From assembly GCF_054482525.1 (NCBI RefSeq), contig NZ_JBTHVG010000007.1: a DNA stretch of 64,000 bases; one strand, given 5' to 3'. The notes beneath the pieces were generated by a model. The model made no database searches. It saw nothing but the letters and a program-made list of their open reading frames with translations, and was not told the origin of the DNA. Origin of the DNA: a plasmid. Shown one piece after another: positions 1,997 to 20,726 of the stretch. Position numbers and translations under genes: made by a program. How positions within the stretch are numbered: position 1 is the stretch's first letter; every line of letters begins with the position of its first letter.

Positions 1997-2201
1997 GATA
2001 TATCTCCCAATTTGTGTAGGGCTTATTATGCACGCTTAAAAATAATAAAAGCAGACTTGACCTGATAGTTTGGCTGTGAGCAATTATGTGCTTAGTGCAT
2101 CTAACGCATAGTTGAGCGGCGGGCGCAGCCCGTCCGCTTGAACGCCGAGTTAGGCATCAGATGCCCTCGGCGCGGGTCGATGCACTTTTCGCACATGCCG
2201 C

Positions 2202-2990: not shown

Positions 2991-3120
2991 GATGCCTAAC
3001 GTTAAGTTCAGCGGCAGCTTTTAAGTTGCGGCTTTGTGGAATACTTTTGCGCAGCAAAACCACAAAGACGCGACTTAAAAGCTGTCCAAGGAGCGAAGCG
3101 ACTGGTGCTGCAACGCATTG

Positions 3121-3594
3121 TTAGCCTTTTTTCCAAATCTGGTATGTATAATTTATATTAGACATAAAAAACTGTTCAAAAACCAAATTGAAATTCTCAG
3201 GCATTATAGGGAATTTGATATCACCTTCGACTTCAACGTGAACAGTAGACAAATGAATTATATCTGCTTTTTCAATAAGGCTATTATAGATTTGACCCCC
3301 GCCAGAGACATATACATGATCTGTAACTTTTGATAGCTCTTTCAAAGCATTTTCTATTGAAGGAAAAACTAGGACGTTTTCATTTGAGCTTGAAATTCCG
3401 TTCTTTGACACTACTGCATATTTGCGATTTGGAAGAACACCCATAGAGTCAAATGTTTTTCTTCCGACAAGGAGCCATTGATTATATGTGAGCGCTTTAA
3501 AGAGTAGTTGCTCACCTTTTACTGACCACGGGATATCAGGACCACTACCGATTACGCCATTTTCTGACACTGCAGAAATCAATGATATTTTCAA
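3121..3594 (-). CDS. dfrA: Trimethoprim-resistant dihydrofolate reductase DfrA (dfrA1-like family; allele not determined, possibly dfrA27-like)
   Basis: 157 codons from a TTG start preceded by AAGGGAG; product [48 protein letters not shown]... typical of dfrA1-family; first cassette next to attI1. Confidence 0.85.
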
Positions 3595-3751
3595 TTTAAC
3601 TCCCTTAATGGCTAACTTTGTTTTAGGGCGACTGCCCTGCTGCGTAACATCGTTGCTGCTCCATAACATCAAACATCGACCCACGGCGTAACGCGCTTGC
3701 TGCTTGGATGCCCGAGGCATAGACTGTACAAAAAAACAGTCATAACAAGCC

Positions 3752-4765
3752 ATGAAAACCGCCACTGCGCCGTTACCACCGCTGCGTTCGGTCAAGGTTC
3801 TGGACCAGTTGCGTGAGCGCATACGCTACTTGCATTACAGTTTACGAACCGAACAGGCTTATGTCCACTGGGTTCGTGCCTTCATCCGTTTCCACGGTGT
3901 GCGTCACCCGGCAACCTTGGGCAGCAGCGAAGTCGAGGCATTTCTGTCCTGGCTGGCGAACGAGCGCAAGGTTTCGGTCTCCACGCATCGTCAGGCATTG
4001 GCGGCCTTGCTGTTCTTCTACGGCAAGGTGCTGTGCACGGATCTGCCCTGGCTTCAGGAGATCGGAAGACCTCGGCCGTCGCGGCGCTTGCCGGTGGTGC
4101 TGACCCCGGATGAAGTGGTTCGCATCCTCGGTTTTCTGGAAGGCGAGCATCGTTTGTTCGCCCAGCTTCTGTATGGAACGGGCATGCGGATCAGTGAGGG
4201 TTTGCAACTGCGGGTCAAGGATCTGGATTTCGATCACGGCACGATCATCGTGCGGGAGGGCAAGGGCTCCAAGGATCGGGCCTTGATGTTACCCGAGAGC
4301 TTGGCACCCAGCCTGCGCGAGCAGCTGTCGCGTGCACGGGCATGGTGGCTGAAGGACCAGGCCGAGGGCCGCAGCGGCGTTGCGCTTCCCGACGCCCTTG
4401 AGCGGAAGTATCCGCGCGCCGGGCATTCCTGGCCGTGGTTCTGGGTTTTTGCGCAGCACACGCATTCGACCGATCCACGGAGCGGTGTCGTGCGTCGCCA
4501 TCACATGTATGACCAGACCTTTCAGCGCGCCTTCAAACGTGCCGTAGAACAAGCAGGCATCACGAAGCCCGCCACACCGCACACCCTCCGCCACTCGTTC
4601 GCGACGGCCTTGCTCCGCAGCGGTTACGACATTCGAACTGTGCAGGATCTGCTCGGCCATTCCGACGTCTCTACGACGATGATTTACACGCATGTGCTGA
4701 AAGTTGGCGGTGCCGGAGTGCGCTCACCGCTTGATGCGCTGCCGCCCCTCACTAGTGAGAGGTAG
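3752..4765 (+). CDS. intI1: Class 1 integron integrase IntI1
   Basis: 337-aa [53 protein letters not shown]..., tyrosine recombinase motifs (HTLRHSFAT...[15 protein letters not shown]). Confidence 0.95.
3839..3867 (-). promoter_or_regulatory. Integron cassette promoter Pc (TGGACA - 17 bp - TAAACT, the hybrid PcH1 configuration) inside the 5' end of intI1
   Basis: Minus-strand -35 TGGACA (3862-3867) and -10 TAAACT (3839-3844) with 17-bp spacer, directed into the cassette array. Confidence 0.6.
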
Positions 4766-4942
4766 GGCAGCGCAAGTCAATCCTGGCGGATTCACTACCC
4801 CTGCGCGAAGGCCATCGGTGCCGCATCGAACGGCCGGTTGCGGAAAGTCCTCCCTGCGTCCGCTGATGGCCGGCAGCAGCCCGTCGTTGCCTGATGGATC
4901 CAACCCCTCCGCTGCTATAGTGCAGTCGGCTTCTGACGTTCA

Positions 4943-4967
4943 GTGCAGCCGTCTTCTGAAAACGACA
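4943..4967. repeat. IRi, 25-bp terminal inverted repeat at the intI1 end of the class 1 integron
   Basis: Sequence gtgcagccgtcttctgaaaacgaca is the complement of TGTCGTTTTCAGAAGACGGCTGCAC. Confidence 0.75.
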
Positions 4968-5318
4968 ATGGAGGTGGTAGCCGAGGGTGTGGAAACACCC
5001 GACTGCCTTGCGTGGTTGCGGCAGGCGGGTTGCGACACGGTGCAGGGTTTCCTGTTCGCCAGGCCGATGCCGGCGGCGGCCTTCGTCGGCTTCGTCAACC
5101 AATGGAGGAACACCACCATGAACGCCAATGAACCGAGCACCAGTTGCTGCGTGTGCTGCAAGGAAATCCCGCTCGATGCCGCCTTCACGCCGGAAGGGGC
5201 CGAGTACGTGGAGCATTTCTGCGGGCTGGAGTGCTATCAGCGCTTCCAGGCGCGGGCCAGCACTGCGACCGAAACCAGCGTCAAACCGGACGCTTGTGAT
5301 TCGCCGCCGTCAGGTTGA
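4968..5318 (+). CDS. tnpM: TnpM (C-terminal remnant of urf2, EAL-domain protein) of Tn21
   Basis: 116-aa ORF starting immediately after IRi: [42 protein letters not shown]...; Tn21 backbone context. Confidence 0.7.
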
Positions 5319-5443
5319 GGCATACCCTAACCTGATGTCAGATGCCATGTGTAAATTGCGTCAGGATAGGATTGAATTTTGAATTTATTGACATATCTCG
5401 TTGAAGGTCATAGAGTCTTCCCTGACATTTTGCAGGGAATTCC

Positions 5444-5601
5444 ATGACTGGACAGCGCATTGGGTATATCAGGGTCAGCACCTTCGACCAGAACCCGGAA
5501 CGGCAACTGGAAGGCGTCAAGGTTGATCGCGCTTTTAGCGACAAGGCATCCGGCAAGGATGTCAAGCGTCCGCAACTGGAAGCGCTGATAAGCTTCGCCC
5601 G
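5444..5601 (+). pseudogene. tnpR: Tn21 resolvase tnpR, 5' fragment truncated by IS26
   Basis: MTGQRIGYIRVSTFDQNPERQLEGVKVDRAFSDKASGKDVKRPQLEALISFAR then the IS26 inverted repeat; serine recombinase N-terminus. Confidence 0.8.
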
Positions 5602-6421
5602 GGCACTGTTGCAAAGTTAGCGATGAGGCAGCCTTTTGTCTTATTCAAAGGCCTTACATTTCAAAAACTCTGCTTACCAGGCGCATTTCGCCCAGGGGAT
5701 CACCATAATAAAATGCTGAGGTCTGGCCTTTGCGTAGTGCACGCATCACCTCAATACCTTTGATGGTGGCGTAAGCCGTCTTCATGGATTTAAATCCCAG
5801 CGTGGCGTTGATTATCCGTTTCAGTTTGCCATGATCGCATTCAATCACGTTGTTCCGGTACTTAATCTGTCGGTGTTCAACGTCAGACGGGCACCGGCCT
5901 TCGCGTTTGAGCAGAGCAAGCGCGCGACCATAGGCGGGCGCTTTATCCGTGTTGATGAATCGTGGGATCTGCCACTTCTTCACGTTGTTGAGGATTTTAC
6001 CCAGAAACCGGTATGCAGCTTTGCTGTTACGACGGGAGGAGAGATAAAAATCGACAGTGCGGCCCCGGCTGTCGACGGCCCGGTACAGATACGCCCAGCG
6101 GCCATTGACCTTCACGTAGGTTTCATCCATGTGCCACGGGCAAAGATCGGAAGGGTTACGCCAGTACCAGCGCAGCCGTTTTTCCATTTCAGGCGCATAA
6201 CGCTGAACCCAGCGGTAAATCGTGGAGTGATCGACATTCACTCCGCGTTCAGCCAGCATCTCCTGCAGCTCACGGTAACTGATGCCGTATTTGCAGTACC
6301 AGCGTACGGCCCACAGAATGATGTCACGCTGAAAATGCCGGCCTTTGAATGGGTTCATGTGCAGCTCCATCAGCAAAAGGGGATGATAAGTTTATCACCA
6401 CCGACTATTTGCAACAGTGCC
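5602..6421 (-). mobile_element. IS26 copy 1 (820 bp, IS6 family)
   Basis: Bounded by GGCACTGTTGCAAA terminal inverted repeats; encodes Tnp26. Confidence 0.95.
5654..6358 (-). CDS. tnpA: IS26 transposase Tnp26 (copy 1; carries a Thr where copies 2 and 3 have Ala in ...RKGQ[T/A]SAFYY...)
   Basis: MNPFKGRHFQRDIILWAVRWYCKYGISYRELQEMLAERGVNVDHSTIYRWVQRYAPEMEK... Confidence 0.95.
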   Translation of the reverse strand: MNPFKGRHFQRDIILWAVRWYCKYGISYRELQEMLAERGVNVDHSTIYRWVQRYAPEMEKRLRWYWRNPSDLCPWHMDETYVKVNGRWAYLYRAVDSRGRTVDFYLSSRRNSKAAYRFLGKILNNVKKWQIPRFINTDKAPAYGRALALLKREGRCPSDVEHRQIKYRNNVIECDHGKLKRIINATLGFKSMKTAYATIKGIEVMRALRKGQTSAFYYGDPLGEMRLVSRVFEM

Positions 6422-7713
6422 GTCGTAAACGGTCGAGTTTCATGATCCGTTTGAGGTGGGCGAAAAGCATCTCCACCTTCTTTCGTTCGCAGCGAGAGAC
6501 GAGGTACTCCGGTGTCTTGGCGATGCGTCGAGCCACGTCGCGGGCAGCCTCATGGATGCTGCGGACGATCTTCCGATTCGGCGTGTTGGGGCAGCATTTC
6601 GCTTTCAACGGGCAGGTGGCGCAGTCGGTTTGGCTGGAGCGGTAAATGACGGTTTTGGCCTTAGTTACCCGCGACCTTTGCTGGGTGAAGGCGCGCCATT
6701 CACTGCGTAGCGGTTTGCCGGCTGGGCAGCGATATTCATTGGCGTCCTGACTCCAGTGAAAGTCGTTACTGGAGAGGCTGTCGTCCTTGCGCTCGGTCTT
6801 GTCCCACACCGGCACATGCGGTTCGATGTCCTTTTCTTCGACCATCCAGGCCAGCATCGGGGCGGTGCCATAAGCGGTATCGCCGATAAGGCGTTCCGGT
6901 GTGAGATCGAACTGCGCCTCGACACGCTCGACCATCGTCCTAGTCGAATCGACTTCGGCGGTACGGTGCGCCGGGGTAGCTTCCACGTCCATGATCACAC
7001 CGTGCTCAGTGTCGATCAGGTAATTCGTGGAGTAGGCAAAAAAGGCCGGGCCACCTGGCGCTGCTGTCCAACGGGACTGAGGATCAGTGAGCGAAATTTT
7101 CTTGGGAAGAGCCTCAGCCAGCGCCTCTTCATCAAGGGCTTCGAGGTACTCGCGCACTGCGCGGCTGCTGAGCTTTGGATCGTTCCAATCGACCTCATCT
7201 CCCGCCACCCCACGTTGCCGGCTGGCATCCGCCTTAATGATGCTGGCGTCGACGGCGAAACCTTCACCCTTGACTAGGCCGGCTGCCATGCAGCGCCGCA
7301 GCACCTCATTGAATAACCAGCGGAATAGATCGCTGTCACGAAAACGCCCATGGCGATTCTTCGAGAAGGTCGAGTGATTGGGGACTTCGTCTTCCAGACC
7401 CAACCGGCAGAACCAGCGATAGGCCAGGTTCAGGTGCACCTCTTCGCACAATCGCCGCTCGGAACGAATGCCATAGCAAGTAGCCGACGACCAGCATGCG
7501 CACCATCAACTCCGGGTCAATCGAGGGACGCCCGATGGGGCTATAGAAATCTGCCAGGTAGGCACGTAGATCACTGAGATCCAAGCACTGGTCGATGCTG
7601 CGCAGGAGATGTTGGGCCGGGACGTGATCTTCCAGATTGAACGAGTAGAACAGGCGCTGCTGTCCTCCCGGTAACTGTCCCATCATGCTGTTCGCCCCCA
7701 CGCTCGCTGACAA
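6422..7713 (-). pseudogene. IS5/IS1182-family transposase, frameshifted and 3'-truncated by IS26
   Basis: Two overlapping minus-strand frames (N-part MSASVGANSMMGQLPGGQQRLFYSFNLEDHVPAQHLLRSIDQ...; C-part with DDE-like region) that together resemble one transposase; reading frame runs into the IS26 end. Confidence 0.55.
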
Positions 7714-7800
7714 AGCAATTTTGCCAACGGCATGGGGAGGCCGCTACTTTTTCAACAGAATCGGCCGCACACAGCCATTCGGCTCAACAGAACCCTGCCT

Positions 7801-8958
7801 TTACCCCACCAAACTCCGGAAACTCGCCCGGTAGTCCGTCGGCTTGAGATGCACATGTTGGCTGAGGTCGCCGGGTAGCGTGAACAGGCGCGGACCGTCC
7901 CGAAACTGGAACACGCGATACAGATGGAATTGATCGCCCGCCTCCTTGGAGAATTCGAGTTCGTTGTGGCTGACCAAGAAAGACGAGCCTACCCCGCCAT
8001 TGGTGGTTTTCACCTCGATGAAGCGCTCATGGGCGTCCTCTTCGAACGACAGGATGTCGAACCCCGCACCGTCTCCCTGGGTGTCGGACACCCAATCCAG
8101 CCGCTGAAAAAGCTCTGGGTGGCCGAGCTCGGTCAGGCGTTGCTGTTCGTAGCCAATCACCCACTGCTCCCCTGCCCGGCCCAGCTTGCGGTTGGCTTCA
8201 TCGCGAGCGGCATAATCGAACTTTCGCGGTAGGCGTTGCCGTAGAGATGCCGGGGTACGCACAAGCACTTCACGGGCGGGTGGTTCTACCAAAGCCGCTC
8301 GGTAGGTTTTGTCACCCGGAAGTTTTACCTCCTCCAGGGCATCGACAAGAGCGCCGACCGTCTGCTGATGTTCCAGAACGTAGGCGTGTACGGATTTACG
8401 CAGCAGCAGTTGGCTGTTGCCGCGTGGCTTGTAGCCGTTGATATAGGGCAGGCCCAGGGCATCGAGTACGGCGCTAATGTTCTGGTGCTTGAGCTCGACT
8501 GAAGACTTGCTGCGACCGTTCAGCAGTTGGCGCAGTGCCTGGTTGTGCTCGGACTTGTTGTACGGCTCCCCAGCCGCCTCGGCACGCAGCATGTCGAAAT
8601 AGTCTTCGACCGTGGCCAGGACCTCTTCTTCGGACCAGTCTTCGCCGATGCGAATGATGCGAAACCCGAGCCGCGTCAGCGCCGGAACGACGGTCGCCTC
8701 GCCACCGGAGAAGCTGTCAGCAGTGAGCGGGCCCTGCTCGGGAAATTGCTTGCCGAAGGCCACACCGGCGATGGCCTTGGAATCGCAATCGGTGCCGGTC
8801 TTCGGATCACGTACCAGGAAGTCGCGGGACTTGCCGTAGCCGTGGCGCGCCAGGAATTTCGTGCGGCCCAGTTGCACGAACTCATCGATGGCAGCCTGCA
8901 CGGCGGCGGGGCTTCGAAGCTGGGAGAGTTGAGACACAGGGTCCTTCCTTACTGTCAT
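7801..8958 (-). CDS. Putative restriction-endonuclease-like protein: N-terminal DNA-binding-like domain plus C-terminal DUF3883/NOV-C-like PD-(D/E)xK nuclease domain (function inferred)
   Basis: 385 aa from ATG at 8958 (MTVRKDPVSQ...); C-terminal region ...GAGFDILSFEEDAHERFIEVKTTNGG...HLYRVFQF resembles a D...E.K nuclease core. The ORF track extends to 9114 but the upstream part overlaps a separate small ORF. Confidence 0.45.
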   Translation of the reverse strand: MTVRKDPVSQLSQLRSPAAVQAAIDEFVQLGRTKFLARHGYGKSRDFLVRDPKTGTDCDSKAIAGVAFGKQFPEQGPLTADSFSGGEATVVPALTRLGFRIIRIGEDWSEEEVLATVEDYFDMLRAEAAGEPYNKSEHNQALRQLLNGRSKSSVELKHQNISAVLDALGLPYINGYKPRGNSQLLLRKSVHAYVLEHQQTVGALVDALEEVKLPGDKTYRAALVEPPAREVLVRTPASLRQRLPRKFDYAARDEANRKLGRAGEQWVIGYEQQRLTELGHPELFQRLDWVSDTQGDGAGFDILSFEEDAHERFIEVKTTNGGVGSSFLVSHNELEFSKEAGDQFHLYRVFQFRDGPRLFTLPGDLSQHVHLKPTDYRASFRSLVG

Positions 8959-8987
8959 GGTGTGCCGGGAACCGCCGAGCCACGAGA

Positions 8988-9233
8988 TTATGAGTAGCCC
9001 CTGAACAGAAACGTCACGATAAAAGCCGTGAACGCCACCAGGCCCATTAAATCCCTTGCGTATTTGCAGCCCGTGCTGTCCAAACCTGTACCAGGTCCGA
9101 TCAACACGCTCCAACCATTGAGGTACGAAAACACCGCCTGACCGAACAAAAAATGCGTGATAGCCGCCGCAGCCATGACGCCGGAATCGTCAGACAGGCT
9201 GTAGCTGTTGACCATTGCCCTGTACGCCTGCAT
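8988..9233 (-). CDS. Small hydrophobic protein (81 aa), possibly co-transcribed with the downstream nuclease-like gene
   Basis: ORF MQAYRAMVNSY...GLVAFTAFIVTFLFRGYS with hydrophobic stretches; ends about 30 bp before the ATG of the next gene on the same strand. Confidence 0.25.
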   Translation of the reverse strand: MQAYRAMVNSYSLSDDSGVMAAAAITHFLFGQAVFSYLNGWSVLIGPGTGLDSTGCKYARDLMGLVAFTAFIVTFLFRGYS

Positions 9234-9519
9234 CTGAAATGGCTATTGCCCTGATGGGAGCCGGCTTTTCAGCCACCGACACCAGCGATGCCGTCAATAT
9301 TCTTTACCCGATAACCATGACCGTACAAGCTAACAAGGCCTGGCAAGCCAGCGGACTTAAAAAGTCTTTTTTTCTACCATCCCACAAAAAAGTTCGTGGT
9401 GGAGAAAAGATAAGCTATGCAAGGCTTTAGGAGACGTGGTTTTTCAGGATGACGAAGAACGATTCGGCGCTAGGTGCAACATAGGTGCATCGCACGAGCG
9501 CTAGGAACGGCGAAAAAAG

Positions 9520-9552
9520 GCGGACGTGGCGAAATCGGTAGACGCAGCAGAC
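9520..9552 (+). tRNA. tRNA-Leu(UAA) exon 1 fragment (positions 1-32: acceptor 5' strand, D-arm, anticodon-stem 5' strand), cut by IS26
   Basis: GCGGACG-UG-GCGAAAUCGGUAGACGC-A-GCAGA-C has a tRNA-Leu-like D-arm; acceptor strand is exactly complementary to CGUCCGC at 12929-12935 on the minus strand. Confidence 0.6.
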
Positions 9553-10372
9553 GGCACTGTTGCAAATAGTCGGTGGTGATAAACTTATCATCCCCTTTTG
9601 CTGATGGAGCTGCACATGAACCCATTCAAAGGCCGGCATTTTCAGCGTGACATCATTCTGTGGGCCGTACGCTGGTACTGCAAATACGGCATCAGTTACC
9701 GTGAGCTGCAGGAGATGCTGGCTGAACGCGGAGTGAATGTCGATCACTCCACGATTTACCGCTGGGTTCAGCGTTATGCGCCTGAAATGGAAAAACGGCT
9801 GCGCTGGTACTGGCGTAACCCTTCCGATCTTTGCCCGTGGCACATGGATGAAACCTACGTGAAGGTCAATGGCCGCTGGGCGTATCTGTACCGGGCCGTC
9901 GACAGCCGGGGCCGCACTGTCGATTTTTATCTCTCCTCCCGTCGTAACAGCAAAGCTGCATACCGGTTTCTGGGTAAAATCCTCAACAACGTGAAGAAGT
10001 GGCAGATCCCACGATTCATCAACACGGATAAAGCGCCCGCCTATGGTCGCGCGCTTGCTCTGCTCAAACGCGAAGGCCGGTGCCCGTCTGACGTTGAACA
10101 CCGACAGATTAAGTACCGGAACAACGTGATTGAATGCGATCATGGCAAACTGAAACGGATAATCAACGCCACGCTGGGATTTAAATCCATGAAGACGGCT
10201 TACGCCACCATCAAAGGTATTGAGGTGATGCGTGCACTACGCAAAGGCCAGGCCTCAGCATTTTATTATGGTGATCCCCTGGGCGAAATGCGCCTGGTAA
10301 GCAGAGTTTTTGAAATGTAAGGCCTTTGAATAAGACAAAAGGCTGCCTCATCGCTAACTTTGCAACAGTGCC
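9553..10372 (+). mobile_element. IS26 copy 2 (820 bp)
   Basis: GGCACTGTTGCAAA inverted repeats; Tnp26 ORF on plus strand; 8 bp to its left (9545-9552) are CAGCAGAC. Confidence 0.95.
9616..10320 (+). CDS. tnpA: IS26 transposase Tnp26 (copy 2)
   Basis: Translation identical to copy 3. Confidence 0.95.
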   Translation: MNPFKGRHFQRDIILWAVRWYCKYGISYRELQEMLAERGVNVDHSTIYRWVQRYAPEMEKRLRWYWRNPSDLCPWHMDETYVKVNGRWAYLYRAVDSRGRTVDFYLSSRRNSKAAYRFLGKILNNVKKWQIPRFINTDKAPAYGRALALLKREGRCPSDVEHRQIKYRNNVIECDHGKLKRIINATLGFKSMKTAYATIKGIEVMRALRKGQASAFYYGDPLGEMRLVSRVFEM

Positions 10373-11381
10373 GGACTTTTCAAGTCTCGGAAGGTTTCTT
10401 CAATCTGCATTCGCTTCGAATAGATATTAACAAGTTGTTTGGGTGTTCGAATTTCAACAGGTAAGTTAGTTGCTAGAACCCATGGCTCCTTTGCCGACGC
10501 TGAGTAGATTTTAGGTGACGGGTGGTGACAATGAGTCCGTGTCGAGCGCTGATTTTTTCGGCCTTTAGAGCGAGATTTATACAATAGAATTTGGCATGAG
10601 ATTGGATTGCTTTTAGTCAGCCTCTTATAGCCTAAAGTCTTTGAGTGACTAGATGACATATCATGTAAGTTGCTGATAGGTTTCCAGTTTTCCGCTCCTA
10701 GGTCTGCATATTGTACTTTTCCTCTTACTCGACTTAACCAGTACCAACCCAGCTTCTCAACGGATTTATACCATGGCACTTTAAAGCCAGCATCACTGAC
10801 AATGAGCGGTGTGGTGTTACTCGGTAGAATGCTCGCAAGGTCGGCTAGAAATTGGTCATGAGCTTTCTTTGAACATTGCTCTGAAAGCGGGAACGCTTTC
10901 TCATAAAGAGTAACAGAACGACCGTGTAGTGCGACTGAAGCTCGCAATACCATAAGTCGTTTTTGCTCACGAATATCAGACCAGTCAACAAGTACAATGG
11001 GCATCGTATTGCCCGAACAGATAAAGCTAGCATGCCAACGGTATACAGCGAGTCGCTCTTTGTGGAGGTGACGATTACCTAACAATCGGTCGATTCGTTT
11101 GATGTTATGTTTTGTTCTCGCTTTGGTTGGCAGGTTACGGCCAAGTTCGGTAAGAGTGAGAGTTTTACAGTCAAGTAATGCGTGGCAAGCCAACGTTAAG
11201 CTGTTGAGTCGTTTTAAGTGTAATTCGGGGCAGAATTGGTAAAGAGAGTCGTGTAAAATATCGAGTTCGCACATCTTGTTGTCTGATTATTGATTTTTCG
11301 CGAAACCATTTGATCATATGACAAGATGTGTATCCACCTTAACTTAATGATTTTTACCAAAATCATTAGGGGATTCATCAG
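10373..11381 (-). mobile_element. Truncated IS10 (outer end plus 5' two-thirds of the transposase gene), cut by IS26
   Basis: Outer end ...CTGATGAATCCCCTAATGATTTTGGTAAAAATCATTAAG (complement at 11343-11381); partial transposase MCELDILHDSLYQFCPELHLKRLNSLTLACHALLDCKTLTLTELGRNLPTKARTKHNIKRIDRLLGNRHLHKERLAVYRWH... (IS4 family, IS10-like) whose frame runs into IS26. Confidence 0.85.
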
Positions 11382-11416
11382 CGTATAGTGTTTTGCAGTT
11401 TAGAGGAGATATCGCG

Positions 11417-12277
11417 ATGCATACGCGGAAGGCAATAACGGAGGCGCTTCAAAAACTCGGAGTCCAAACCGGTGACCTCTTGATGGTGCATGCCTCACTT
11501 AAAGCGATTGGTCCGGTCGAAGGAGGAGCGGAGACGGTCGTTGCCGCGTTACGCTCCGCGGTTGGGCCGACTGGCACTGTGATGGGATACGCGTCGTGGG
11601 ACCGATCACCCTACGAGGAGACTCTGAATGGCGCTCGGCTGGATGACGAAGCCCGCCGTACCTGGCTGCCGTTCGATCCCGCAACAGCCGGGACTTACCG
11701 TGGGTTCGGCCTGCTGAATCAATTTCTGGTTCAAGCCCCCGGCGCGCGGCGCAGCGCGCACCCCGATGCATCGATGGTCGCGGTTGGTCCGCTGGCTGAA
11801 ACGCTGACGGAGCCTCACGAACTCGGTCACGCCTTGGGGGAAGGATCGCCCGTCGAGCGGTTCGTTCGCCTTGGCGGGAAGGCCCTGCTGTTGGGTGCGC
11901 CGCTAAACTCCGTTACCGCATTGCACTACGCCGAGGCGGTTGCCGATATCCCCAACAAACGGTGGGTGACGTATGAGATGCCGATGCTTGGAAGAGACGG
12001 TGAAGTCGCCTGGAAAACGGCATCGGATTACGATTCAAACGGCATTCTCGATTGCTTTGCTATCGAAGGAAAGCCGGATGCGGTTGAAACTATAGCAAAT
12101 GCTTACGTGAAGCTCGGTCGCCATCGAGAAGGTGTCGTGGGCTTTGCTCAGTGCTACCTGTTCGACGCGCAGGACATCGTGACGTTCGGCGTCACCTATC
12201 TTGAGAAGCATTTCGGAACCACTCCGATCGTGCCTCCGCACGAGGCCGTCGAGCGCTCTTGCGAGCCTTCAGGTTAG
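11417..12277 (+). CDS. aac(3)-II: Aminoglycoside N(3)-acetyltransferase AAC(3)-II (gentamicin/tobramycin resistance)
   Basis: 286-aa product MHTRKAITEALQKLGVQTGDLLMVHASLKAIGPVEGGAETVVAALRSAVGPTGTVMGYASWDRSPYEETLNGARLDDEARRTW... Confidence 0.95.
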   Translation: MHTRKAITEALQKLGVQTGDLLMVHASLKAIGPVEGGAETVVAALRSAVGPTGTVMGYASWDRSPYEETLNGARLDDEARRTWLPFDPATAGTYRGFGLLNQFLVQAPGARRSAHPDASMVAVGPLAETLTEPHELGHALGEGSPVERFVRLGGKALLLGAPLNSVTALHYAEAVADIPNKRWVTYEMPMLGRDGEVAWKTASDYDSNGILDCFAIEGKPDAVETIANAYVKLGRHREGVVGFAQCYLFDAQDIVTFGVTYLEKHFGTTPIVPPHEAVERSCEPSG

Positions 12278-12289
12278 AGGCCGTCGACA

Positions 12290-12832
12290 ATGATAATCTG
12301 GATCAACGGACCTTTCGGCGCCGGAAAGACGACGCTCGCTAAGCGGCTGCGCGATCGGCGTTCCAAATCGCTGATCTTTGACCCCGAGGAAATCGGGTTC
12401 GTGGTGAAAGAAACGGTCCCCATGCCAGCGAGCGGAGACTATCAGGATCTCCCCTTGTGGAGGGGACTTACGATCGCGGCGGTCAGGGAGATTCGAAGGA
12501 ATTACTCGCAGGACATCATCATCCCAATGACGCTCGTGCACCCGGACTATCTGACTGAGATACTCGACGGGGTAAGGCGGATCGACGATCAGCTGCTGCA
12601 CATCTTTCTGACGCTCAACGAGGACCTATTGCGTCACCGGATCGCGAACCAGACCATGCATCCTGACCCGAATCGAAATGCGGAGATTCGAGAGTGGCGA
12701 TTAGCGAATGTCGCCCGATGCTTGGCCGCAAGGGAACGGCTTCCATGCACAACCCGTGTTCTCGATAGTGGTGCACACACCAGCGATGAACTCGCAGCGA
12801 TGGTGCTCGACGGAATCGATGGGCGCACCTGA
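12290..12832 (+). CDS. tmrB: TmrB-like ATP-binding protein (tunicamycin resistance family)
   Basis: 180-aa ORF with P-loop MIIWINGPFGAGKTTLAKRL; known aac(3)-II/tmrB pairing. Confidence 0.85.
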   Translation: MIIWINGPFGAGKTTLAKRLRDRRSKSLIFDPEEIGFVVKETVPMPASGDYQDLPLWRGLTIAAVREIRRNYSQDIIIPMTLVHPDYLTEILDGVRRIDDQLLHIFLTLNEDLLRHRIANQTMHPDPNRNAEIREWRLANVARCLAARERLPCTTRVLDSGAHTSDELAAMVLDGIDGRT

Positions 12833-12924
12833 TCGCCTTCGACGCCTGCGCAAAGCGTAGCGCGAGGGTGGCGGGCTCACGACCAAACGCCCAGAGGTCG
12901 ATCATCGCAGGGATGTTTGGCTTT

Positions 12925-12975
12925 GTGGTGCGGACGACGGGACTCGAACCCGTACTCTCACAGAGAAGCAGATTT
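12925..12975 (-). tRNA. tRNA-Leu(UAA) exon 2 (A35 to CCA: anticodon AA, anticodon-stem 3' strand, long variable arm, T-arm, acceptor 3' strand)
   Basis: Minus-strand RNA AAAA-UCUGC-UUCUCUGUGAGAGU-ACGGGUUCGAGUCCCGU-CGUCCGC-A-CCA; stems pair with the exon 1 fragment at 9520-9552. Confidence 0.6.
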
Positions 12976-13189
12976 TCGTACCACCTCGACTTTCGCCGCC
13001 GTCTGATGACGTTCGTGGTCTGGACTGTCCCTTCGCCATTGCCCGAAGGCTTTAGGCGCCGCCCGTCCAGTCTCTACACCTTCCCCCGAAGGGGCTTGGC
13101 TCGGGATTGGCTTAGGGTATTGCCCGTTAGCGTTCCCCGACTTTGAGCGGTTCTACTCCGCGGATTTCCCCGCGGGCACTCCAATTTTA
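12976..13189 (-). ncRNA. Group I (tRNA-Leu-type) intron, about 214 nt, inserted between U34 and A35 of tRNA-Leu(UAA)
   Basis: Follows exon ...CUU; ends with G before exon 2; contains elements recalled from cyanobacterial tRNA-Leu and Azoarcus tRNA-Ile introns (CCCGAGCCAAGCC; GAAGGUGUAGAGACUGGACGGG...CCUAA). Confidence 0.6.
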
Positions 13190-13199
13190 AAGTCTGCTG

Positions 13200-14019
13200 G
13201 GCACTGTTGCAAAGTTAGCGATGAGGCAGCCTTTTGTCTTATTCAAAGGCCTTACATTTCAAAAACTCTGCTTACCAGGCGCATTTCGCCCAGGGGATCA
13301 CCATAATAAAATGCTGAGGCCTGGCCTTTGCGTAGTGCACGCATCACCTCAATACCTTTGATGGTGGCGTAAGCCGTCTTCATGGATTTAAATCCCAGCG
13401 TGGCGTTGATTATCCGTTTCAGTTTGCCATGATCGCATTCAATCACGTTGTTCCGGTACTTAATCTGTCGGTGTTCAACGTCAGACGGGCACCGGCCTTC
13501 GCGTTTGAGCAGAGCAAGCGCGCGACCATAGGCGGGCGCTTTATCCGTGTTGATGAATCGTGGGATCTGCCACTTCTTCACGTTGTTGAGGATTTTACCC
13601 AGAAACCGGTATGCAGCTTTGCTGTTACGACGGGAGGAGAGATAAAAATCGACAGTGCGGCCCCGGCTGTCGACGGCCCGGTACAGATACGCCCAGCGGC
13701 CATTGACCTTCACGTAGGTTTCATCCATGTGCCACGGGCAAAGATCGGAAGGGTTACGCCAGTACCAGCGCAGCCGTTTTTCCATTTCAGGCGCATAACG
13801 CTGAACCCAGCGGTAAATCGTGGAGTGATCGACATTCACTCCGCGTTCAGCCAGCATCTCCTGCAGCTCACGGTAACTGATGCCGTATTTGCAGTACCAG
13901 CGTACGGCCCACAGAATGATGTCACGCTGAAAATGCCGGCCTTTGAATGGGTTCATGTGCAGCTCCATCAGCAAAAGGGGATGATAAGTTTATCACCACC
14001 GACTATTTGCAACAGTGCC
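13200..14019 (-). mobile_element. IS26 copy 3 (820 bp)
   Basis: GGCACTGTTGCAAA inverted repeats; 8 bp to its left (13192-13199) are GTCTGCTG, the reverse complement of CAGCAGAC. Confidence 0.95.
13252..13956 (-). CDS. tnpA: IS26 transposase Tnp26 (copy 3)
   Basis: Translation identical to copy 2. Confidence 0.95.
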   Translation of the reverse strand: MNPFKGRHFQRDIILWAVRWYCKYGISYRELQEMLAERGVNVDHSTIYRWVQRYAPEMEKRLRWYWRNPSDLCPWHMDETYVKVNGRWAYLYRAVDSRGRTVDFYLSSRRNSKAAYRFLGKILNNVKKWQIPRFINTDKAPAYGRALALLKREGRCPSDVEHRQIKYRNNVIECDHGKLKRIINATLGFKSMKTAYATIKGIEVMRALRKGQASAFYYGDPLGEMRLVSRVFEM

Positions 14020-15095
<1,076 letters not shown>

Positions 15096-15251
15096 TGAGA
15101 GCAGAGATAGCGCTGATGTCCGGCGGTGCTTTTGCCGTTACGCACCACCCCGTCAGTAGCTGAACAGGAGGGACAGCTGATAGAAACAGAAGCCACTGGA
15201 GCACCTCAAAAACACCATCATACACTAAATCAGTAAGTTGGCAGCATCACC
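15096..15251 (-). mobile_element. IS1 fragment (left inverted repeat plus first ~33 codons of insA), interrupted by the Tn2/Tn3 IRR
   Basis: Complement of GGTGATGCTGCCAACTTACTGATTTAGTGTATGATGGTGTTTTTGAGGTGCTCCAGTGGCTTCTGTTTCTATCAGCTGTCCCTCC...; ends where the Tn3-family IR begins. Confidence 0.85.
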
Positions 15252-16535
15252 TCCCTGTTTAAAATCATAATTTGGTTGTTCTGTTCTTGAGTTATTAAGT
15301 AGAGTTCTTATCAGTGTTTGCCAAGCATGATTGATAAATTTATTTTCTGATTCTTTAAAATATCGTCTGATTAAAGCACATAAATCTTCGACACTTTTCT
15401 GACGAGCGCTAGCTGCCCAACGGCCCCCTTCGGTTTGCACCATTGAACGTTGTACACTGTCTCCTAACTGAGCGATAAATTTCTGTTCATCGTCAAGTTG
15501 CATGTTTTCATTTATGATTAATTCATACAAAGCAAGAAAAACAGCTTGATAGTAACGAGGACATTCTTGAGATGAAGATGCATTGCCCAGAATGTGTGAT
15601 CTAAAGTTCAAATTATTTGCATCAAATAATTTTTGAATCATCTCATAAACGAAGAGGTAATTATTGACAATTTTATCTGCACCATTTGTCTGAATGTAAT
15701 TCTCTAATTGAGTTCGTGTATGGATTGCATGACTCGTCGAACCTTCACCGTAAAATGTATCGAGCGATGTTGATCCTGATGTTGGCTTATCATCTAAAAA
15801 TATATAGCCCAAGATATTTGCAACTAACTCTTCATCGTCAGAGTCTCTAATGCTAGGCCTACTAATGATATGATTTCTAATATAGAAATGATTGTCTATA
15901 TTTATTCCATAATCGAGTCCATCATTGCAAATTGATATGTTATGTATTTTATTCAGTCCCATTATATCGCTATGTGTAGTATCTCCTCTTATAATTGTCG
16001 ATATTTTCCTTACTAACTCTGAAAAATTACTAACGCACCCCGCACTTCGTAGTTCTTGTTTTGATAAAATTTTACCATTGGAATTTATGCGTCGAAACAC
16101 TTCGTCAATGTGGTCCTCTGTTGAAGAGTATTCAGATATAGCAAATCTATAGCGAGCAATTAATGTAGAACTTTCGCGGGATAGCACTGGCTCTTTTTGT
16201 TGAAGTTTACCACTGTCTTTTAGTTGTTTTGTTAATGCAATGGCATCTAAATTAAAGTATTTACCATTTAATGAAAATCGCTGCTCAATAAAACTCATTA
16301 AAGCTTCTAGTCTTTGCATTCCATCAAGGATTTCTCTTTTGTTGTCAATGGAAACAAACAATAGCAAAGGGATAGGGTATTGCTGAGTCATTGATGAAAT
16401 CAGTGCTGTTTTCTCTTCGAGGGACCATACTAATTTTCTTTGGTATCTTCGATTTATAATTAATTTATCATCCAGATACCACTCGTATAATTCTTCTGCT
16501 GTCTTGGAGTCAATATCTAAGTTTTCATTAGCCAT
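15225..16535 (-). CDS. DUF262 (ParB-like nuclease/NTPase, GmrSD-family N-terminal domain) protein, C-terminus replaced by IS1 sequence
   Basis: 436-aa ORF with DUF262-like motifs (RRYQRKLVWSLEEK...ILDGMQRLEAL); about 33% GC; last 8 codons and stop (GDAANLLI*) are encoded by the IS1 inverted repeat. Confidence 0.5.
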   Translation of the reverse strand: MANENLDIDSKTAEELYEWYLDDKLIINRRYQRKLVWSLEEKTALISSMTQQYPIPLLLFVSIDNKREILDGMQRLEALMSFIEQRFSLNGKYFNLDAIALTKQLKDSGKLQQKEPVLSRESSTLIARYRFAISEYSSTEDHIDEVFRRINSNGKILSKQELRSAGCVSNFSELVRKISTIIRGDTTHSDIMGLNKIHNISICNDGLDYGINIDNHFYIRNHIISRPSIRDSDDEELVANILGYIFLDDKPTSGSTSLDTFYGEGSTSHAIHTRTQLENYIQTNGADKIVNNYLFVYEMIQKLFDANNLNFRSHILGNASSSQECPRYYQAVFLALYELIINENMQLDDEQKFIAQLGDSVQRSMVQTEGGRWAASARQKSVEDLCALIRRYFKESENKFINHAWQTLIRTLLNNSRTEQPNYDFKQGGDAANLLI

Positions 16536-16819
16536 TAGATGTATCTCGAGTATTTAGTTAAGAAACTGATAGGTCAGTATTTGCATCAATGTTCATTGAA
16601 TTTGTATCCGAAGTCAATCTGATGTAGGAACTTCAAAACTGCGCAAAACACGCAAATACGCACAAGAAAGTAGGGCTGCGCTTGGAATTCGGAAAATAAA
16701 CCACATCAAAACTACTTTTTAGCCAAATAACGTTTGGGAATCACCAGAATGGTGGGACAACAGCGGTTTTAGTGCCCTAAATCGTACGTTTTCATCCAGT
16801 TGCCCCTCAAACCCCATGT

Positions 16820-17152
16820 TCAAGTCAGAATAGTGGACAGGCGGCCAAGAACTTCGTTCATGATAGTCTCCGGAACCCGTTCGAGTCGTTTTCCGCCCCG
16901 TGCTTTCATATCAATTGTCCGGGGTTGATCGCAACGTACAACACCTGTGGTACGTATGCCAACACCATCCAACGACACCGCAAAGCCGGCAGTGCGGGCA
17001 AAATTGCCTCCGCTGGTTACGGGCACAACAACAGGCAGGCGGGTCACGCGATTAAAGGCCGCCGGTGTGACAATCAGCACCGGCCGCGTTCCCTGCTGCT
17101 CATGACCTGCGGTAGGATCAAGCGAGACAAGCCAGATTTCCCCTCTTTCCAT
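16820..17152 (-). CDS. pemK: PemK (MazF/Kid-family endoribonuclease toxin)
   Basis: MERGEIWLVSLDPTAGHEQQGTRPVLIVTPAAFNRVTRLPVVVPVTSGGNFARTAGFAVSL... Confidence 0.9.
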   Translation of the reverse strand: MERGEIWLVSLDPTAGHEQQGTRPVLIVTPAAFNRVTRLPVVVPVTSGGNFARTAGFAVSLDGVGIRTTGVVRCDQPRTIDMKARGGKRLERVPETIMNEVLGRLSTILT

Positions 17153-17153
17153 G

Positions 17154-17411
17154 TCAGATTTCCTCCTGACCAGTCGCCGGTGCATCCAGCCATTCTCGTT
17201 CTTCAGCTGATATTTCAGCATTCGGATCACACTGTGCCAGTAGCTCAGCCAGTGAATATTGCGGGCGTCTGTACGGCTCAACAATCAGCCGGCCATTATC
17301 AATGACCATGCCAACTTCATTATCTGTGCCCAGAGACAGCGCATTCAGCAGTGCCGGTGGGACGGTCAGCATAACTGAGCCGCCAACCCTCTTCAGTCGG
17401 GTGGTATGCAT
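17154..17411 (-). CDS. pemI: PemI antitoxin
   Basis: 85-aa ORF MHTTRLKRVGGSVMLTVPPALLNALSLGTDNEVGMVIDNGRLIVEPY... directly upstream of pemK. Confidence 0.85.
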   Translation of the reverse strand: MHTTRLKRVGGSVMLTVPPALLNALSLGTDNEVGMVIDNGRLIVEPYRRPQYSLAELLAQCDPNAEISAEEREWLDAPATGQEEI

Positions 17412-17503
17412 TCTTCACCTCCATAAAAGTTATATTTAAATATAACATCCACTAAAAAAACACACCAGGCTTTAACGCACAATGTTTAATAAAAATATAA
17501 CTT

Positions 17504-18157
17504 TCAACCAAACAGTAAACCCAGCGTGGTTGCTTCCATATGCAGCAATACCGGCAGCAGCAGGCCACCACTTCTGATCCTGGCCACTGATGTAATCAAC
17601 CCCACCAGGAACAGTTCTGCCAGTGTCAGCAGGTTCTGATACTGGCTGTGCGCGGCGACGAACAACAACGACGTTATCAGCGCCCCCAGCCACATCGTCC
17701 AGCAGTACCGTGAACGGAAGACGTTCAGCATAATCCCCCGGAACAGCGTTTCCTCATTCAACGGGGCAAGGATAAAGATGGTCAGCAACGTCAGGATCAC
17801 GTCAGGTATGGACTTATCGGCAAAAAGTTTCGTCATAAATGGCTCAGCAGGCAGAGCCAGCGCCTTACCGAGCAGAAATACACCGACATACACCACGGCC
17901 ATCGCACCGACCAGCCACGGTACGCCAACGTTGCGCAGCTGACCAACGACCGGTAGCGGAGCTATCCAACGGCGGTATACCAGGAAAACACACAGCAGGT
18001 ACATCAGAACAGTACCATGACTGAAGAACAAATAGTTTTTTCCTGATCCATAAAGCAGAACGGCCTGCTCCATGACAAATCTGGCTCCCCAACTAATGCC
18101 CCATGCAGCCAGCATAACCAGCATAAACTGCAGATATTGATTACGTGTTTGAATCAT
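17504..18157 (-). CDS. CPBP-family intramembrane metalloprotease (CAAX protease-like)
   Basis: 217-aa multi-pass membrane ORF with EE..FRG and ..H....N-like motifs (NEETLFRGIMLNVF; FVAAHS). Confidence 0.5.
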   Translation of the reverse strand: MIQTRNQYLQFMLVMLAAWGISWGARFVMEQAVLLYGSGKNYLFFSHGTVLMYLLCVFLVYRRWIAPLPVVGQLRNVGVPWLVGAMAVVYVGVFLLGKALALPAEPFMTKLFADKSIPDVILTLLTIFILAPLNEETLFRGIMLNVFRSRYCWTMWLGALITSLLFVAAHSQYQNLLTLAELFLVGLITSVARIRSGGLLLPVLLHMEATTLGLLFG

Positions 18158-18779
18158 TGCATCGCCTGTAAATTTTTAACTTGTCCTATTTTTGTCATTA
18201 CCACGTATATACACATGTATAACAATTCAGATATCGTTACCAGGATATGCCGCATCAGCGGCATGGAAGGCGGCACTCTGTTGTTTCATATGATACAGGA
18301 GTAAAACCGCCGAAGCCCGGCGTAAGCCGGTACTGATTGATAGATTTCACCTTACCCATCCCCAGCCCTGCCAGACCATACCCGCTTTCAGCCATGAGAG
18401 AGCTTCTGTGCGCGGTCGGAGTGGTCCCGACGAGGGTTTACCCGAAGTCGGGGCGTATCTCCGCGTTAGCGGGCCGTGAGGGCCGCTTACGAGCGTGTAC
18501 TGAGAACTTCCAGCGAGAAGACTGACAGCGATGAAGATGTAGTTACAACATTCATAATTAAAAGCGACTCTGTTCCGGCCCTTTGGGCCGGGGCGGGGCC
18601 GCTTTTCAGTTATGAGGGAGGGGCTTTGTGGTTTCGGTTCTGCGCTGGACCGGGGTTTTTCTGGAGGTTGTTTTTGTGTGTTGTAACTAAAGTGACTCCG
18701 GTAGGGGCCCGCGGCTTGCGGTGGGAGGTGCATATCTGTCTGTCCACAGGACAGGCAGTGAATAGGTTTTCTTTTTAAA

Positions 18780-19095
18780 TGAATGTAATTAAGTAGTTTA
18801 AAGGAGATATAAACAGGTGTTTAAAAGATACATTGCACCCTGTAAGGCTGGCGCCTGGTGCTTTATGACATGAACGGTTGTAACCTTATGGGGAAGTCCA
18901 TTGCAGTTAAATGTGGATAAGCAAAATTCCCCGTCTGTGAGGCGTGTTTTGTATCAAAAACAGGGGGGGCCAGATGCACCAGAAGGTGGATGATGAGGTT
19001 GTTTTTTGTATGAGGTGCTGCTTTTTTGTTCGCTGGCAGGCTTCAGGCGTGCGAATGCCTCCGGTGCGGGCCGGATTATTCAGAAGAGGTCACTT
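18780..19095. other. RepFII origin region (oriR) downstream of repA1, approximate
   Basis: AT-rich stretch with a DnaA-box-like TTATCCACA (complement near 18912) immediately 3' of repA1. Confidence 0.35.
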
Positions 19096-19953
19096 TCAGG
19101 GGGAAGCTGTGGCCAGCCGGCTGTAATTACGGTTACGTGACAGAATCATGCGCTCTTTCACACGACGCTCCACTTCGCGTTTTACCGCCTCACGATTGGC
19201 AGTGAAGCGCCCTTCCGAGATTTCACGCGTCAGCTGCCGTTTCACCAGGGTGACGATATCCTGACGTTCCCTGTTCGCATCACGACGCGCACGGGCACGC
19301 TTTATTCCACGGGACTTAAGCTCTGTCTGGTAACTGCGGAAACGCTCACGCACAAAACGCCAGGCTTTCGCTATCAGTTCATCCATACCCAGGGTATCCA
19401 GCCCCTGCTTTTTGCGCTGTCTGTTTTCCCATTCAACACGACTGCGGCGCGCAGCAACCACTGCATCCTCAGACACATCAAGGGCGGCAAATAACGCCGG
19501 TGTGAACGTGATATCGGTCGGAATGTAGCACCCGATAAGCGGATCATATTCCGTCTGGTAGGTAATCAGTCCCAGCTCTGCAAGGAACGTCAAGGCTCGG
19601 GAGGCCCGGGTGATGGAGAGTTTTCCGGCAGCAGACTCCGTCGCCAGTCCGCACTCAATGGCCAGCGTAGTGATGGAGCACTGGACGCGGTTGGCCAGCG
19701 GGTCATAGTGAAAACACAGCCCCTGCAGCAGCGCATCAATAGCCCGGCGACGCAGTACCGGTGGCATGCGCCGACGCAGTCCCTTCGAACGGGCATGTGC
19801 CACATGAATGGCGAAATCAAAACGGGAGGTGAAGCCCACCGCCTTTTCCATCAGTTTTTCGCAGAACTTCAGCGTTCCGGCACCTTCACGGGGTGTGAAC
19901 ACCGGATTCGGATTTTTAACCTGTGAATAGTATTTTTGAAGGAGATCAGCCAT
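19096..19953 (-). CDS. repA1: IncFII replication initiator RepA1
   Basis: 285-aa product [56 protein letters not shown]...; RBS GGAGGGGGAC. Confidence 0.93.
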
Positions 19954-20428: not shown

Positions 20429-20495
20429 ACCATCCTGCACTTACAATGCACAGAAGGAGTGAGCACAGAAAGAAGTCTTGAACTTTTCCGGGCAT
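20421..20495 (-). CDS. repA6: RepA leader peptide Tap (repA6), 24 aa
   Basis: ATGCCCGGAAAAGTTCAAGAC... = [24 protein letters not shown], near-identical to the R100/R1 tap peptide as I recall it. Confidence 0.7.
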
Positions 20496-20544
20496 ATAAC
20501 TATACTCCCCGCATAGCTGAATTGTTGGCTATGCGGTTTTATGG

Positions 20545-20640: not shown

Positions 20641-20726
20641 CCACCTTACGGCGTGGCCAGCCACAAAATTCCTTAAACGATCAGCAATCTACCACTCACT
20701 CCTGAGATAAGCAAGAATGTGAATAT

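Follow-up and report, generated by a model that had tools for sequence, protein, structure and literature searches.

The window analysed here, the whole 64,000-nucleotide stretch of plasmid DNA taken from contig NZ_JBTHVG010000007.1 (RefSeq assembly GCF_054482525.1), contains three copies of IS26 around a gentamicin resistance module. Two of these copies adjoin the separated parts of an intron-containing tRNA-Leu gene, which raises the question of how this gene came to be divided and how the DNA between its pieces acquired its present orientation. An initial annotation of the locus had proposed a replicative IS26 event in inverse orientation that inverted the intervening segment and left the target duplication as an inverted repeat.

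The three IS26 copies and their flanks

The IS26 terminal repeat GGCACTGTTGCAAA occurs six times in the window, compared with an expectation of zero, and delimits three copies of the element (Table 1). Each copy is 820 bp long, carries 14-bp terminal inverted repeats and contains a single ORF encoding a 234-aa Tnp26, which places it in the IS6 family. The Tnp26 of all three copies has the G184N substitution of the IS26-v1 variant, for which raised activity has been reported (Pong et al. 2019, as cited in PMC9019673). G184N is also the only difference from the Tnp26 of pCTX-M3 (NC_004464.2), apart from an additional A213T exchange in copy 1. Copies 2 and 3 are oppositely oriented and had been noted initially for their identical transposases; aligned nucleotide by nucleotide, they are identical over the entire 820 nt. 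The sole difference in copy 1 is found at IS position 700 (window position 5722) and leads to A213T, the one-residue deviation that had also been recognised at the outset. Copy 1 was considered as the donor and rejected, because its private SNP is absent from copies 2 and 3; its flanks, moreover, are already present as such in the ancestral plasmids.

Table 1. Features of the rearranged resistance region, in window coordinates.
Feature	Position	Strand	Description
IS26-v1 copy 1	5602..6421	-	Outside the inversion event
ISCfr1 (IS1182-family) remnant	6422..7713	-	Truncated by IS26 copy 1; +1 A frameshift relative to pCTX-M3
DUF3883/NOV_C gene	7801..8937	-	ScoMcrA_N and NOV_C domains; the nuclease-like gene of the initial annotation
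Conserved leader	9350..9519	+	About 170 nt; precedes the tRNA gene
tRNA-Leu(UAA) exon 1, first part	9520..9552	+	First 33 of 35 nt; the final 8 nt (9545-9552) are one copy of the target duplication
IS26-v1 copy 2	9553..10372	+	Left end, new joint to the tRNA target; right end, old flank (truncated IS10)
Truncated IS10/ISVsa5	10373..11381	-	Inverted segment; N-terminal 306 aa of an IS4-family transposase; RNA-OUT at 11267-11336
aac(3)-IId	11417..12277	+	Inverted segment; gentamicin acetyltransferase gene, intact
tmrB-like gene	12290..12832	+	Inverted segment; AAA ATPase
tRNA-Leu(UAA) exon 2	12926..12976	-	51 nt, with encoded CCA end
Group I intron	12977..13189	-	213 nt, between U34 and A35 of the anticodon
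tRNA-Leu(UAA) exon 1, last part	13190..13199	-	Last 2 nt (TT), then the second, inverted target duplication (13192-13199)
IS26-v1 copy 3	13200..14019	-	Right end, new joint to the tRNA target; left end, old flank upstream of blaTEM-1
blaTEM-1	14088..14948	+	Complete, 286 aa; fixed flank of the resident IS26
IS26/tRNA junction 40-mers			GGTAGACGCAGCAGACGGCACTGTTGCAAATAGTCGG and TTTTAAAGTCTGCTGGGCACTGTTGCAAAGTTAGCG

The octamers at 9545-9552 (CAGCAGAC) and 13192-13199 (GTCTGCTG) are exact reverse complements in the window, as the initial annotation had stated. CAGCAGAC adjoins the left end of copy 2 and GTCTGCTG the right end of copy 3, which are the sides required by the inversion model. The two remaining flanks, at the right end of copy 2 and the left end of copy 3, correspond to both flanks of the single resident IS26 in plasmid pZ0117EC0036-1. 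Among the six IS26 flanks, no other pair of 8-mers matches, either directly or as reverse complement. Two unrelated IS26 insertions or truncations next to reverse-complementary 8-mers could give the same picture, since 8-mers can match by chance, but only about 4.6e-4 such coincidences are expected among six flanks. In addition, the flanks in question are the two halves of one gene, which meet exactly at the octamer in 27 alphaproteobacterial genomes and no fewer than 1,210 plasmids, and coincidence can be regarded as effectively refuted.

Restoration of the ancestral sequence

The rearrangement was reversed in silico by re-inverting positions 10373-13191 and deleting copy 2 together with one of the 8-mers. 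The reversed window is collinear with pZ0117EC0036-1: a gap-free alignment of 16,990 bp contains 6 mismatches. In this plasmid, the tRNA gene is intact and the truncated IS10 is separated from blaTEM-1 by a single IS26, whose junctions are those seen in the window. The inversion proposed initially is supported, while its extent, given as 10373-13199, needs correction: the inverted DNA comprises 10373-13191, to which the 8-bp duplicate at 13192-13199 is added.

Re-inversion yields the contiguous intron-containing tRNA-Leu gene that had been predicted. At least 1,210 plasmids, pCTX-M3 among them, contain the restored 680-bp junction in one piece with 100% identity; the target octamer is single-copy in this uninterrupted sequence, and the spliced product is canonical. 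The predicted ancestral order, from the nuclease-like gene through a small ORF, tRNA-Leu, tmrB and aac(3)-II to the truncated IS10, IS26 and blaTEM, is found exactly in pZ0117EC0036-1; only the description of blaTEM as a remnant has to be dropped for a complete gene. The un-inverted left-hand context is also present in pDCE7-2 and pAH62-3.

The exact IS26/tRNA junctions are absent from 72,556 PLSDB records and 5,426 complete RefSeq E. coli genomes. Hits that seem to cover a junction completely are in each case composed of two unconnected matches, IS26 being inserted elsewhere in the vicinity, and neither a sibling nor an intermediate of the rearranged locus was detected in PLSDB or the complete E. 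coli genomes. Among public relatives, none was found that has the present gene order but lacks IS26.

Mechanism of the inversion

The anatomy of the locus, the identity of the two IS26 copies, the exact return to the ancestral sequence and the existence of the ancestor are direct observations. The copy identity, the geometry of the 8-mers and the exact ancestor support the initial reading of a replicative IS26 inversion, and the whole is probably best explained by one-step intramolecular replicative transposition of IS26 in trans; we infer a single transposase-catalysed step rather than several. The parent would have been an IncF plasmid carrying, in this order, IS26, the ISCfr1 remnant, the DUF3883 gene, the intron-containing tRNA-Leu(UAA) gene, tmrB, aac(3)-IId, the truncated IS10, IS26 and blaTEM-1, and the active element would have been the IS26-v1 copy lying between the truncated IS10 and blaTEM-1. 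The target of its two 3'-OH ends would be CAGCAGAC, an octamer within the anticodon-stem sequence of the tRNA-Leu gene, attacked on opposite strands of the same molecule at a distance of 2.8 kb. Replication through the Shapiro intermediate would then duplicate both IS26 and the 8-bp target. The product would be the structure seen in the window, in which the 3' part of the tRNA gene has been inverted along with tmrB, aac(3)-IId and the truncated IS10 between two identical, opposite IS26 copies, the target duplication forms an inverted repeat and the pieces of the tRNA gene are 3.6 kb apart. He et al. (2015, PMC4471558) attributed this signature to intramolecular transposition in trans in one step, and a review of the IS6 family gives the same reading (PMC7986276).

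A multi-step route could lead to the same structure. First, intermolecular replicative transposition would place IS26 in the tRNA gene and join the plasmid to a second replicon or to a sister plasmid as a cointegrate; RecA-dependent resolution would leave a simple insertion between direct repeats of CAGCAGAC. Homologous recombination with the inverted resident IS26 would finally flip the 2.8 kb and convert the direct repeats into inverted ones, and by this reasoning every base of the final structure would agree with the window. Direct 8-bp repeats are known around some IS26 copies, and in recA+ hosts inverted repeats of 820 bp undergo recombination. Recombination between inverted IS26 copies interconverts the isomers with inverted and direct duplications, so that the structure alone cannot separate a one-step inversion from an insertion followed by recombination. 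The product of a one-step event could likewise be flipped back by the same recombination, and the observed isomer does not discriminate. The public data searched, which contain neither a sibling nor an intermediate, lend independent support to neither route. Cointegrate resolution is described in the IS6-family review (PMC7986276), and a multi-step history was the first interpretation of the pKpQIL-234 inversion, before it was re-interpreted by He et al. (PMC4471558). However, such a history takes three events where one suffices, and He et al. argued that simple IS26 insertions are rare relative to intramolecular events (PMC4471558). Moreover, not one of the PLSDB records or complete E. coli genomes searched has IS26 at this tRNA site in any configuration. 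We consider the multi-step route improbable and favour one-step transposition in trans.

The orientation of the segment also depends on the assembly. Short reads cannot span 820-bp inverted repeats, and the same junction reads therefore fit either orientation; while IS26 would truly be inserted in the tRNA gene, the assembler could have oriented the segment arbitrarily, or the culture could be a mixture of both isomers. Since all four IS26/flank junctions are shared by the isomers, the additional copy of IS26 and the duplicated 8 bp are nevertheless genuine, whichever orientation is correct. An artefact of this type, which is very unlikely, would cast doubt only on the present orientation and not on the IS26 event at the octamer.

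One-step inversions by IS26 in trans have been described in pKPN-068, pKPC-727, pENT-576 and, by comparison with pKpQIL-10, in pKpQIL-234 (He et al. 2015, mBio, PMC4471558). As in these cases, opposite IS26 copies bracket the inverted segment in the window, the 8-bp sequences are identical but mutually inverted, a gene is split into separated, inverted pieces, and the ancestral form, with a single IS26 and an undisturbed target, exists. Only the target, which is a passenger tRNA-Leu gene hit in its anticodon stem, the small size of the 2.8-kb segment and the host plasmid set the locus apart from them; the element here is IS26-v1 (G184N). The inversion is a clean but ordinary case of a well-known rearrangement. 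It adds a documented example of IS26 remodelling resistance regions by intramolecular replicative transposition, and the availability of the exact ancestor makes it a clean teaching or benchmark case. The passenger tRNA is the only gene destroyed, the resistance genes are undamaged and the event is without consequence for the resistance phenotype. The new IS26-bounded aac(3)-IId-tmrB segment could move as a unit.

The split tRNA-Leu(UAA) gene and its group I intron

The split tRNA gene, a by-product here, is more interesting than the inversion. It is a real gene for tRNA-Leu(UAA), interrupted by a group I intron. After in-silico splicing of the restored gene, ARAGORN identifies the 86-nt product as tRNA-Leu(taa); its variable arm is long and it ends in CCA. 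The intron aligns to the Rfam model RF00028 (Intron_gpI) over its full length with 36.8 bits (E = 8.6e-8), below the gathering cut-off of 50 bits; among its homologues, one in Candidatus Liberibacter reaches 54.4 bits and others 35-49. The secondary structure is conserved: compensatory changes back 34 of the 90 pairs in the RNAalifold consensus of 28 homologues. In P1, the last exon nucleotide, U, pairs with G in the U-G wobble of the 5' splice site. The intron ends in ...GGUACG, the terminal G of which abuts the AAAA of exon 2, and it contains the conserved core GAGCCAAGCC ... GAAGGUGUAGAGACUGGACGG.

Bacterial tRNA group I introns are known from the cyanobacterial and plastid tRNA-Leu(UAA), from tRNA-Ile(CAU) of Azoarcus and from tRNA-Arg(CCU) of Agrobacterium. 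The intron described here shares with known examples the insertion between U34 and A35 of tRNA-Leu(UAA), the P1 wobble, the terminal G and the conserved core, but its closest relatives are alphaproteobacterial rather than cyanobacterial, and this copy resides on enterobacterial resistance plasmids. The nearest relatives of the tRNA gene, with up to 95% identity over 299 nt, are found in Alphaproteobacteria such as Pseudochelatococcus, Enterovirga, Mesorhizobium, Phyllobacterium and Roseovarius. The leader upstream of the gene is common to genomes of Hyphomicrobiales and Rhodobacterales at 84-90% and matches no Rfam family. A literature search, with most subscription journals outside its scope, returned nothing relevant in which group I introns or tRNAs are connected to tmrB or ISCfr1. 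We flag this structured RNA, as the tRNA-Leu gene is left unannotated in the one PGAP-annotated RefSeq record examined.

Composition and origin of the resistance module

The stretch from the ISCfr1 remnant through the DUF3883 gene, the small ORFs, the tRNA-Leu gene with its intron and tmrB to aac(3)-IId is shared with pCTX-M3 and more than 1,300 other plasmids at 99.9-100% identity. Its components have different relatives. tmrB and aac(3)-IId show 86% nucleotide identity to contigs that are syntenic with the Sinorhizobium meliloti chromosome. The DUF3883 gene, together with an ISCfr1-like element, is 89% identical at the nucleotide level to a contig of Stutzerimonas kunmingensis, and the homology ends at the DUF3883 start codon. 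This joint match rules out that the DUF3883 gene comes from the same donor; it stems from a different one, and the module is therefore a mosaic.

In the Sinorhizobium-like contigs and next to three other tmrB variants, no tRNA was found beside tmrB, the homology ending at the tmrB stop codon, and tmrB is absent from 27 alphaproteobacterial tRNA loci. It is conceivable, though we hold this only tentatively, that the alphaproteobacterial intron-containing tRNA-Leu(UAA) gene and its native leader of about 170 nt are an overlooked feature of the aac(3)-IId-tmrB module, carried by over 1,300 plasmids of clinical and veterinary origin. If so, the tRNA gene would serve as a phylogenetic marker that places the donor of aac(3)-II and tmrB among Hyphomicrobiales-like Alphaproteobacteria, and a putative, potentially self-splicing ribozyme would circulate on enterobacterial plasmids. 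A conserved alphaproteobacterial tRNA-Leu in a widespread gentamicin resistance module would also limit where the environmental source of aac(3)-II has to be sought. In contrast to pCTX-M3, the module in the window is broken and partly inverted by IS26, and its aac(3)-IId is preceded by the truncated IS10/ISVsa5, whereas in pCTX-M3 IS26 directly adjoins the upstream side of the gene.

Flanks and geometry of the IS26 copies

Six matches to the 14-bp IS26 terminal repeat, against none expected, bound three IS26 copies in the window (see table). The initial annotation had assigned identical transposases to copies 2 and 3 and one deviating residue to copy 1, and this holds base by base: copies 2 and 3 are identical, and copy 1 differs only at IS nucleotide 700 (window 5722), which changes Ala213 of Tnp26 to Thr (A213T). 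All three copies are IS26-v1 (nomenclature in PMC9412624), three nucleotides apart from the IS26 of pCTX-M3 and encoding Tnp26 G184N; A213T is private to copy 1 and comes on top of G184N. PMC9019673, citing Pong et al. 2019, attributes raised activity to IS26-v1.

The octamers to the left of copy 2 (CAGCAGAC) and copy 3 (GTCTGCTG) are, as initially annotated, exact reverse complements, and no other pair among the six IS26 flanks matches. As only about 4.6e-4 chance 8-mer matches are expected among six flanks and the remaining pairs are unmatched, this observation is real and no coincidence. An IS that transposes replicatively within its own molecule yields two daughter copies, each with one flank retained from before the event and one newly formed joint. 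The octamer adjoins copy 2 at its L end and copy 3 at its R end, and these are the new joints. The retained flanks are truncated IS10, which begins at 10373 next to the R end of copy 2, and the sequence upstream of blaTEM-1, which begins at 14020 next to the L end of copy 3. This geometry is exactly that predicted for the "trans" (inversion) outcome.

Features of the rearranged region, with window coordinates
Feature	Position	Strand	Remarks
IS26 copy 1	5602-6421	-	820 bp, bounded by terminal repeats
IS26 copy 2	9553-10372	+	820 bp, bounded by terminal repeats
IS26 copy 3	13200-14019	-	820 bp, bounded by terminal repeats
tRNA-Leu(UAA), two pieces	9520-9552 + 12926-13191		intact in pZ0117EC0036-1 (6549-6847) and in L001
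aac(3)-IId	11417-12277		intact
tmrB	12290-12832		intact
blaTEM-1	14088-14948		intact

Restoration of the ancestral order

The predicted ancestor was rebuilt in silico from window 1-9552, the reverse complement of 10373-13191, and 13200 onwards. A 680-bp piece spanning the restored junction is unbroken at 100% identity in many plasmids; it matches 1,364 PLSDB records, at least 1,210 of them with a coverage of 80% or more. These plasmids include pCTX-M3, with the order ISCfr1, DUF3883 gene, two small ORFs, unannotated gap, tmrB-like ATPase and aac(3)-IId. The truncated IS10-IS26-blaTEM-1 joint, also predicted, is found elsewhere in one piece. The proposed ancestral order with a contiguous tRNA-Leu exists in full in pZ0117EC0036-1 (NZ_CP098215.1), an IncF plasmid of E. 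coli from a dog in Korea, with which the restored window 5602-22591 forms a gap-free alignment of 16,990 bp containing 6 mismatches. In this plasmid, both IS26 copies have exactly the sequence of window copies 2 and 3. The un-inverted left-hand context is present in pDCE7-2 and pAH62-3, where a class 1 integron (dfrA17-aadA5) and IS26 are followed by the ISCfr1 remnant onward.

Neither PLSDB nor a set of 5,426 complete E. coli genomes contains either of the two IS26/tRNA junctions, so that, at least within these two collections, the event is confined to this plasmid lineage. Apparent full-length junction matches were rejected, all consisting of two pieces with IS26 at another location.

Four of the six mismatches to pZ0117EC0036-1 (window 10516, 10703, 10957 and 10972) fall in a 460-bp stretch of truncated IS10, and this clustering suggests that in one of the lineages the element underwent gene conversion with another IS10/ISVsa5 copy. 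In pDCE7-2 (20372-22238) and pAH62-3 (18372-20263), a second, duplicated truncated-IS10 segment precedes the IS26 adjoining aac(3)-IId, an arrangement that differs from both the window and pZ0117EC0036-1.

Mechanism of the inversion

Geometry and restoration support the replicative IS26 event in inverse orientation that was initially proposed. The best-supported account, which we consider probable, is a single intramolecular replicative transposition in trans, in which the IS26 then sitting between truncated IS10 and blaTEM-1 would have been the donor and the octamer, 2.8 kb away, the target. He et al. 2015 (PMC4471558) and a review of the IS6 family (PMC7986276) read the same signature in this way. 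If IS26 had first inserted with a direct duplication and the two inverted copies had then recombined through RecA, inverting what lay between them, the end sequence would be identical, and recombination of this type would also flip the one-step product back and forth. Short reads cannot show which way round a segment lies when 820-bp inverted repeats flank it. The route by insertion and recombination is less parsimonious and no intermediate turned up in the public data searched, so it is unlikely and the one-step route is favoured. The rearrangement is one more case of a type that is already thoroughly known, and of little intrinsic interest. More noteworthy is the passenger it split, an alphaproteobacterial tRNA-Leu gene that is interrupted by a group I intron and carried by a very widespread resistance module.

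The split tRNA-Leu and its group I intron

The restored gene of 299 nt consists of exon 1 (35 nt), an intervening sequence (213 nt) and exon 2 (51 nt). In agreement with the initial call of an intron-containing tRNA-Leu, ARAGORN identifies the joined exons as a tRNA-Leu(UAA) whose variable arm is long and whose CCA end is encoded. The alignment of the intervening sequence to Rfam Intron_gpI spans the whole model and scores 36.8 bits (E = 8.6e-8), below the curated cut-off of 50 bits; a Candidatus Liberibacter homologue, with 54.4 bits, lies above that cut-off. When GTDB species representatives were searched by pattern, 27 genomes proved to have a homologous interrupted gene, nearly all named ones being Alphaproteobacteria. 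Over the 299 nt, Pseudochelatococcus and Enterovirga reach 95% identity, and Mesorhizobium, Phyllobacterium, Paramesorhizobium, Pelagibacterium and Roseovarius 92-94%; identity to genes of Hyphomicrobiales and Rhodobacterales is up to 95%. An RNAalifold consensus of 28 sequences recovers the tRNA arms and intron helices, with compensatory changes in 34 of 90 pairs. In P1 the last exon U takes part in a U-G wobble, and the final intron nucleotide is a G. The octamer targeted by IS26 is the anticodon stem's 5' strand and ends 2 nt ahead of the 5' splice site.

At least 1,210 plasmids carry the complete gene, 213-nt intron included, in their aac(3)-IId-tmrB module. In the PGAP-annotated RefSeq record of pE2855-3, where the module is intact, the 480-bp gap holding the tRNA gene carries no annotation. 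A full-text literature search for tmrB/ISCfr1 with group I intron/tRNA, most subscription-journal papers lying outside its scope, gave no relevant match.

On the upstream side, similarity to alphaproteobacterial genomes reaches about 170 nt beyond the tRNA; on the downstream side it ends directly after CCA. This leader (window 9350-9519) is 84-90% conserved across several alphaproteobacterial families, starts with a terminator-like hairpin (GGACTTAAAAAGTC) and a T run after it, and matched no Rfam family. A further ARAGORN call, tRNA-Thr(GGT) at 37833-37904 within the F-type transfer region, is probably spurious.

Origin of the module

The module has a mosaic structure. tmrB and aac(3)-IId share 86% nucleotide identity with metagenomic contigs on which the surrounding genes are syntenic with the Sinorhizobium meliloti chromosome, and this similarity stops at the tmrB stop codon. 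A Stutzerimonas kunmingensis contig matches the ISCfr1-like element and DUF3883 gene (window 6422-8937) at 89% identity, up to the DUF3883 start codon. On that contig the DUF3883 gene is preceded by a 1,729-aa DEAD/UvrD helicase, possibly forming a two-gene defence system with it; the helicase is missing from the plasmid module, which is therefore a mosaic from at least two donors. A tRNA-Leu adjoining tmrB was found in no genome among the alphaproteobacterial tRNA loci and tmrB-variant contigs compared. The ISCfr1 remnant is truncated by IS26 copy 1 and carries a 1-nt insertion (extra A, window ~7478) relative to pCTX-M3, which frameshifts the transposase.

Consequences for the resistance genes

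The event destroyed only the passenger tRNA gene and created a new IS26-bounded segment with aac(3)-IId-tmrB. blaTEM-1, initially described as a remnant, proved to be intact. The truncated IS10 end, including RNA-OUT/pOUT, was inverted along with aac(3)-IId. At this retained end, RNA-OUT/pOUT (11267-11336) is directed towards aac(3)-IId, the start of which lies 36 bp past the IS10 terminus, and may contribute to aac(3)-IId expression.
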